4,596 nt of DNA from Escherichia coli (GTDB taxonomy: Bacteria > Pseudomonadota > Gammaproteobacteria > Enterobacterales > Enterobacteriaceae): assembly GCF_003334815.1 (NCBI RefSeq), contig NZ_QOWO01000076.1. One strand, given 5' to 3'. Below the pieces are notes generated by a model. That model ran no database searches. It had not been told where the DNA came from and saw nothing but the letters and a program-made list of their open reading frames with translations. Below, piece after piece: positions 4,358 through 4,427 of the stretch. A program made the position numbers and the translations under genes. Each line of letters begins with the position of its first letter. The first letter of the stretch is position 1.

Positions 4358-4427
4358 CAACACTTTAAAATGCCCTATATAGGGTTAACCAGTAATTATC
4401 TGTATGATAGCTTTGAGTTCGGGAGGA

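Follow-up and report, generated by a model that had tools for sequence, protein, structure and literature searches.

Between the end of an IS3-type element and the end of an IS1 copy in a contig of Escherichia coli lie 70 bp that belong to neither element and that contain a perfect 12-bp palindrome. Such an arrangement raises the question of whether the spacer carries a signal of its own, be it a binding site, a hairpin, a promoter or a small gene, or whether it is what is left of the locus in which the insertion sequences once settled. We analysed the spacer within the whole stretch of 4596 bp in which it lies, referred to here as the window. Our reading, to which we assign a probability of roughly 95%, is that the spacer is a non-functional relic of the plasmid-type omptin gene OmpTp and that its palindrome is incidental.

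The preliminary description of this DNA had placed the spacer at positions 4358-4427, between an IS3-like end at 4357 and an IS1 end at 4428, and recomputation from the sequence bore out these coordinates. On the left, the IS3-type end (...GGGTAAGATCA, also given as ...CTGGGTAAGATCA) ends at 4357 and aligns with the end of an intact, annotated IS3 in the record NZ_CP021680.1 (L005). The element in the window is a remnant on the minus strand (4022-4357, delimited by alignment to that intact copy), whose IRL end abuts the omptin fragment. It is 88-94% identical to the intact copy and has an internal deletion of about 900 bp: window 4120-4357 is 94% identical, window 4022-4115 is 88% identical, and positions 3368-4262 of L005 are absent between the two. 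In another record, L001, PGAP annotates partial IS3-family pseudogenes at the site of this remnant. On the right, GGTAATGACTCCAACTTACTGATAG from 4428 onward agrees base for base with the insB-side end of IS1F as annotated in K-12. This IS1F-type copy lies with its insB-side (IRR) end at the spacer, also on the minus strand (4428-4596), and is clipped by the end of the window. It aligns at 99% with L001, where PGAP annotates an IS1F-family transposase and then ykiE and fecI, and in related genomes the IS1 of the window runs on into ykiE-fecIRABCDE. Each boundary of the spacer carries an ambiguity of 1 nt, since the adjoining base of the IS is also that of omptin, and the blastn omptin match reaches 4357-4428.

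A BLASTn search with the 70-bp spacer had been proposed in the preliminary description, with the remark that a match to the interior of an ordinary gene would make the palindrome incidental. The search returned such a match, to the interior of an omptin gene, and thereby supported another of its suggestions, namely that the spacer is simply the remains of the original target locus. The spacer (4358-4427, plus strand) corresponds to nt 580-649 of the 954-nt OmpTp-type coding sequence, that is, to codons 194-216 plus 1 nt. Compared with the omptin coding sequence WP_000280980.1 on plasmid pM160133_p2 (L002, 3422-4375), 67 of the 70 positions are identical (96%), in frame 0 from codon 194 onward. 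The 23-residue translation of the spacer, QHFKMPYIGLTSNYLYDSFEFGR, whose counterpart in the intact gene is QHFKMPYIGLTGNYRYDSFEFGG, matches the NCBIfam profiles NF008224 (E = 9e-8) and NF008222 (E = 4e-7) at profile positions 194-215. The match to omptins is significant and consistent in both position and frame, as an omptin-derived origin would have it, and its score of 31.8 bits lies far under the omptin family cut-off of 415.

A functional omptin is a beta-barrel of about 300 residues with a signal peptide and the catalytic residues Asp83, Asp85, Asp210 and His212 (mature OmpT numbering). What remains in the window is 23 of the 317 codons, equivalent to precursor residues 194-216 or mature residues 174-196 by alignment to the structure 1i78, and tblastn and blastn found no further omptin-derived sequence in the window. 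The fragment lacks a start, a signal peptide, catalytic residues and a C-terminus, and thus falls short of a functional omptin. Its three differences from the intact gene, G205S, R208L and G216R, are all nonsynonymous, and so is a fourth, D211Y, found in the copies on IncFIB plasmids. A run of exclusively nonsynonymous changes would be as expected of a dead fragment, the numbers being small.

The parent gene can be named with some precision. The intact plasmid protein scores 651.7 bits on NCBIfam NF008222 (cut-off 537), is nearly identical to the protein in PDB entry 7xw0 ('OmpT') and is clearly homologous to the protein in the OmpT crystal structure 1i78; on these similarities its assignment to the omptins is secure. 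Its gene adjoins hlyF (annotated as an SDR oxidoreductase) and mig-14, which matches the published arrangement of OmpTp, the OmpT variant of ColV plasmids that is about 73% identical to chromosomal OmpT and lies beside hlyF and mig-14 (PMC5913352). We also considered an origin from the chromosomal ompT and rejected it on the DNA identity of about 74% and the different codons for the residues PYIG. The comparison points clearly to a relic of the plasmid type and not of chromosomal ompT.

How does the palindrome fit into this picture? An exact 12-bp palindrome with a TATA core had been described at 4373-4384, and both its position and its symmetry hold: on recomputation, CCCTATATAGGG equals its own reverse complement. 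In the omptin frame it consists of the codons CCC TAT ATA GGG, for Pro199-Tyr200-Ile201-Gly202 in the conserved motif KMPYIGL, and the same 12 bases are present in the intact plasmid omptin genes of the records L002, L003 and L012. The further suggestion that it might be a relic binding site or hairpin did not survive. According to that reading, the palindrome would be a protein-binding site or a cruciform or hairpin signal, for example the site of a regulator or a recombinase, that has been kept for its function. Its perfect symmetry over 12 bp, its AT-rich core and its identity across thousands of E. coli records are what such a signal might look like, yet we regard this reading as very improbable on several grounds. 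The palindrome descends without change from within a coding gene, in which it specifies PYIG in frame, and it has no DNA counterpart in the paralog ompT. The K-12 ompT gene encodes the same residues with codons that are not palindromic; the palindrome therefore arose by accident, through the synonymous codons that the plasmid lineage happens to use, and is not a conserved DNA site.

The frequency of such palindromes is also at chance level. The 4596-bp window has no perfect 12-bp palindrome besides CCCTATATAGGG, and 500 dinucleotide-preserving shuffles of the window contained 1.1 on average, with at least one in 68% of them. For a random 70-mer of the composition of the spacer, the chance of a 12-bp palindrome is about 2%, a figure that is post hoc. 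Within the 276 kb of fetched DNA, the 12-mer was found exclusively in omptin-derived sequence. As a hairpin, the palindrome could form a stem of 4 bp at most, and the 70-mer folded as single-stranded DNA reaches -3.1 kcal/mol, which is no better than its shuffles (z = +0.66). Moreover, on the plasmid recorded as L009, a Tn3-family-like inverted repeat of 38 bp replaces everything to the left of window position 4378, so that the palindrome is halved in this lineage. A consensus scan of both strands detected neither a sigma-70-like promoter nor an intrinsic-terminator-like site in the spacer, and a search of the whole window with Rfam covariance models gave no match at E <= 1 and hence no known structured RNA. 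A functional operator or hairpin could be recognized by its occurrence beyond chance, by conservation independent of coding, and by a stable structure or an associated regulated promoter, and the palindrome displays none of these.

A G-rich run had also been noted directly before the IS1 end. We located it at 4421-4429 on the plus strand, where GGGAGGAGG is made up of the omptin codons Gly215-Gly216 and of the first two G's of IS1, so its last two G's belong to the insertion sequence. The region reads GGG GGG A in the intact gene and, after one G>A change, GGG AGG A in the relic, followed by the GG of the IS1 end.

The run bears on a second rival reading, in which the spacer encodes a real micro-protein of 20 residues or GGGAGGAGG acts as a ribosome-binding site. 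RefSeq, through PGAP, annotates a 20-codon open reading frame at 4370-4432 on the plus strand (MPYIGLTSNYLYDSFEFGRR, then a stop) as the 'hypothetical protein' WP_113705808.1 in many genomes, among them L001 (5013-5075) and L005 at the matching position. Furthermore, GGAGG approximates the Shine-Dalgarno core and has an ATG 2 nt downstream, inside IS1. Nevertheless, the annotated frame simply starts at omptin Met198 and ends with a TAA inside the IS1 terminus, and every substitution relative to the parent gene alters an amino acid. Inspection of the sequence before its ATG revealed no Shine-Dalgarno motif, nor is there a promoter-like site at 4200-4596 outside the IS1 body. The ATG behind GGAGG, for its part, opens a frame of five codons (MTPTY, then a stop), and at a distance of 2 nt it is too close to the run for translation to start normally. 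GGGAGGAGG is not the ribosome-binding site of any real gene, and the 20-codon frame is, to judge from its composition out of omptin and IS1 sequence, most likely an annotation artefact; a genuine micro-protein or ribosome-binding site seems to us just as improbable as a preserved binding site. WP_113705808.1 is almost certainly a spurious 20-residue entry in thousands of E. coli genomes, for which the label of an omptin pseudogene fragment would fit better.

Least likely of all is a hybrid outward promoter formed by the spacer and the IS ends and acting on IS1F or on the downstream fec genes: IS ends can form hybrid promoters and TATATA resembles a -10 hexamer, but the consensus scan found no pair of -35 and -10 elements involving the spacer on either strand, the whole 768-bp IS1 lies in opposite orientation between the spacer and fecI, and IS1F and fecI are arranged in the same way in K-12, where the spacer is missing. 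Under the relic reading, which we hold with high confidence as a whole, the palindrome, its TATA core and the GGAGG run would all be by-products of a coding sequence with no action of their own.

The same reading accounts for how widespread and uniform the spacer is. When its 70 bases alone served as the query, matches came from 2541 of 5426 complete E. coli genomes and from 698 plasmid records, and many of those on plasmids fall under an annotated 'omptin family outer membrane protease'. About half of the complete E. coli genomes have the relic in the leuX island, ahead of IS1F-ykiE-fecIRABCDE. Matches to the omptin gene in E. coli genomes either cover at least 91% of it or comprise the piece of nt 579-650 only. 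Identity of the 70 bp is at least 99% in 2049 records, which might be taken for a sign of constraint, but the 4.5 kb around them are just as conserved, and the window is 99.3% identical to the chromosome of the type strain, ATCC 11775. As part of the relic reading, we are confident that this conservation would reflect the recent shared descent of the whole island block rather than selection on the spacer.

In ATCC 11775, the order of features is an IS66 remnant, a phytase-like esterase, IS3 and IS5 remnants, a YmgB/AriR-family gene, the deleted IS3, the 70-bp relic, IS1F, ykiE and fecIRABCDE, IS911/IS30 remnants and tRNA-Leu. This stretch is the leuX island, and fec lies within KpLE2 (PMC3032704). 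The relic appears to be unnamed in the literature that we searched, and its RefSeq label is that of a hypothetical protein.

Other parts of the window carry the marks of insertion sequences as well. Window 40-1077 on the plus strand is an IS66-family tnpC pseudogene, frameshifted in the ATCC 11775 annotation, and window 1316-2689 on the minus strand is an intact gene of 457 codons for a protein with 'esterase-like activity of phytase family' and a signal peptide, amid the IS remnants of the leuX island. Two IS3-family terminal repeats, at 3127-3165 and 4319-4357, are 93% identical over 42 bp and point the same way at a distance of 1.2 kb; between them are the IS5 remnant and the low-GC YmgB/AriR-family gene (3425-3718, minus strand). 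The repeat at 3127-3165 belongs to a different IS3-family remnant, with the C-terminus of a transposase at about 2940-3087. Beside an IS3-family remnant, window 2881-2918 (GGGCTGCGTTTAGGAAACGCCCTATATTGTACGG) agrees at about 31 of 38 positions with the 38-bp Tn3-family-like terminal inverted repeat of L009 (2963-3000, GGGCTCCGTTTGGGAAACGGAAAATATTGTACGTTAAG), which there abuts and truncates the omptin relic. The copy in the window looks like an orphan transposon end, and the repeat presumably resembles those of the Tn21 type.

Turning to the origin of the relic, we propose that an IS3-type element would have entered or recombined at omptin nt 579/580 and that an event mediated by IS1 would have severed the gene at nt 649/650. 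Through later deletions and recombinations, again IS-mediated, the remainder of omptin would then have been lost and the relic brought next to the IS1F that precedes ykiE-fecIRABCDE. Target-site duplications are usually 9 bp and sometimes 8 bp for IS1, and 3 bp for IS3. At IS1F there is none, the flanks being TTCGGGAGGA and GAAATCCCCA, and the junction of IS1F with fecI recurs identically in K-12, where yjhU DNA adjoins the other side of IS1F; at the intact IS3 of L005 there is none either, the flanks being CAT and CAA. Since neither element has the direct duplication on both sides that marks a simple insertion, IS1F and IS3 are breakpoints of later recombination or deletion and not simple insertions, and it is for this reason that we infer that IS1 joined plasmid-type omptin DNA to fec. 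Neither of two possible 5' intermediates with a single IS (omptin 500-649 followed by the IS1 end, and the IS3 end followed by omptin 580-729) was found in any plasmid record at a coverage of at least 80%, and the order of events is therefore one that we infer.

A search for the 5' part of omptin joined to the right end of IS3 at the predicted site gave a single match of full coverage, in L012, which was discarded as a different insertion, at nt ~785. That record (NZ_CP122932.1, 2972-5186) holds an independent IS3 insertion in OmpTp at about nt 785, and the OmpTp gene is thus a repeated target of insertion sequences. The two halves of the gene share about 30 nt in this record, and identity drops to 96% in the 3' half, a pattern suggestive of recombination between two alleles. 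In NZ_CP021680.1 (L005, 3243-4500), the intact IS3 takes the place of the deleted, diverged remnant of the window, meets the omptin relic at an unchanged junction and has different DNA, a DUF2254 gene, on its far side, which is evidence of recombination between IS3 copies. This 23-kb 'plasmid' with fec may be a misassigned chromosomal contig.

On the IncFIB plasmids pWE_M_1 and pMRSN346647_113.1 (L004, 2896-4070, and L006), the block of window 3254-4427 lies between two inverted IS1 copies. The block comprises the IS5 remnant, the ymgB/ariR-like gene, the deleted IS3 and the omptin relic, and the cargo beside it differs: beyond the right-hand IS1 of L006 comes an evgA/evgS-like two-component locus, and L004 has an IS26 to the right and an evgS-like gene further away. 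The relic therefore travels together with its IS1 junction, and the block is common to chromosomes and plasmids through IS1.

A complementary junction was found on four plasmids of the ColBM/ColV type. In pETN48 (NC_014615.1; L011, 3527-3545), NZ_CP024852.1, NZ_AP022050.1 and NZ_CP069959.1, IS1 abuts omptin nt 642-954 at 100% identity. The junction of omptin (up to nt 649) with IS1 in the window (4420-4435) and the plasmid junction of IS1 with omptin (from nt 642) overlap by exactly 8 bp, CGGGGGGA, which matches an IS1 target duplication in length. The insB-side end of IS1 is present at either junction, and a single IS1 cannot produce both, so the pair calls for either a composite element with inverted IS1 copies or two independent hits at a hot spot. 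It is conceivable, if rather doubtful, that OmpTp on a virulence plasmid was the target of a composite element bounded by two inverted IS1 copies, with fec possibly as its cargo; the plain alternative is that IS1 struck one hot spot twice, independently. In ATCC 11775 there is no second IS1 beyond fecE, where the IS911/IS30 remnants and then tRNA-Leu follow, and a Klebsiella fec plasmid shows no obvious IS1 past fecE. The whole plasmid NZ_AP022050.1, which carries IS1 next to omptin 642-954, has no 70-bp piece, no fec and no duplication at the other IS1 end. If the composite element did exist, a virulence plasmid would once have carried the block that now precedes the chromosomal fec operon in about half of E. 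coli.

Taken as the relic of OmpTp, the spacer is of small biological weight: it is a clean gene scar between insertion sequences, the ordinary remains of a known gene. It is, on the other hand, a handy marker of plasmid-type (OmpTp) DNA joined by IS1 to the chromosomal fec island, and as such it could aid in tracing the history of that island.

Among known systems, the closest is OmpTp of the ColV and ColBM virulence plasmids (PDB 7xw0), to which the spacer corresponds at 67 of 70 positions in frame, palindrome included. It is unlike OmpTp in keeping 23 of 317 codons, with three amino-acid changes and without a start, a signal peptide or a catalytic residue. Chromosomal OmpT of K-12 (protease VII, PDB 1i78) has the same protein motif here, QRFKMPYIGLTGSYRYEDFELGG, but differs at the DNA level, with about 74% identity and the codons CCC TAC ATT GGC for PYIG, which form no palindrome. 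As a locus, the relic resembles the 'IS graveyards' of E. coli genomic islands such as KpLE2 and the leuX island: a small part of a target gene survives between two IS ends that lack target-site duplications, and the island around it is rich in remnants of IS66, IS3, IS5, IS1, IS911 and IS30. It shows no difference in kind from them.
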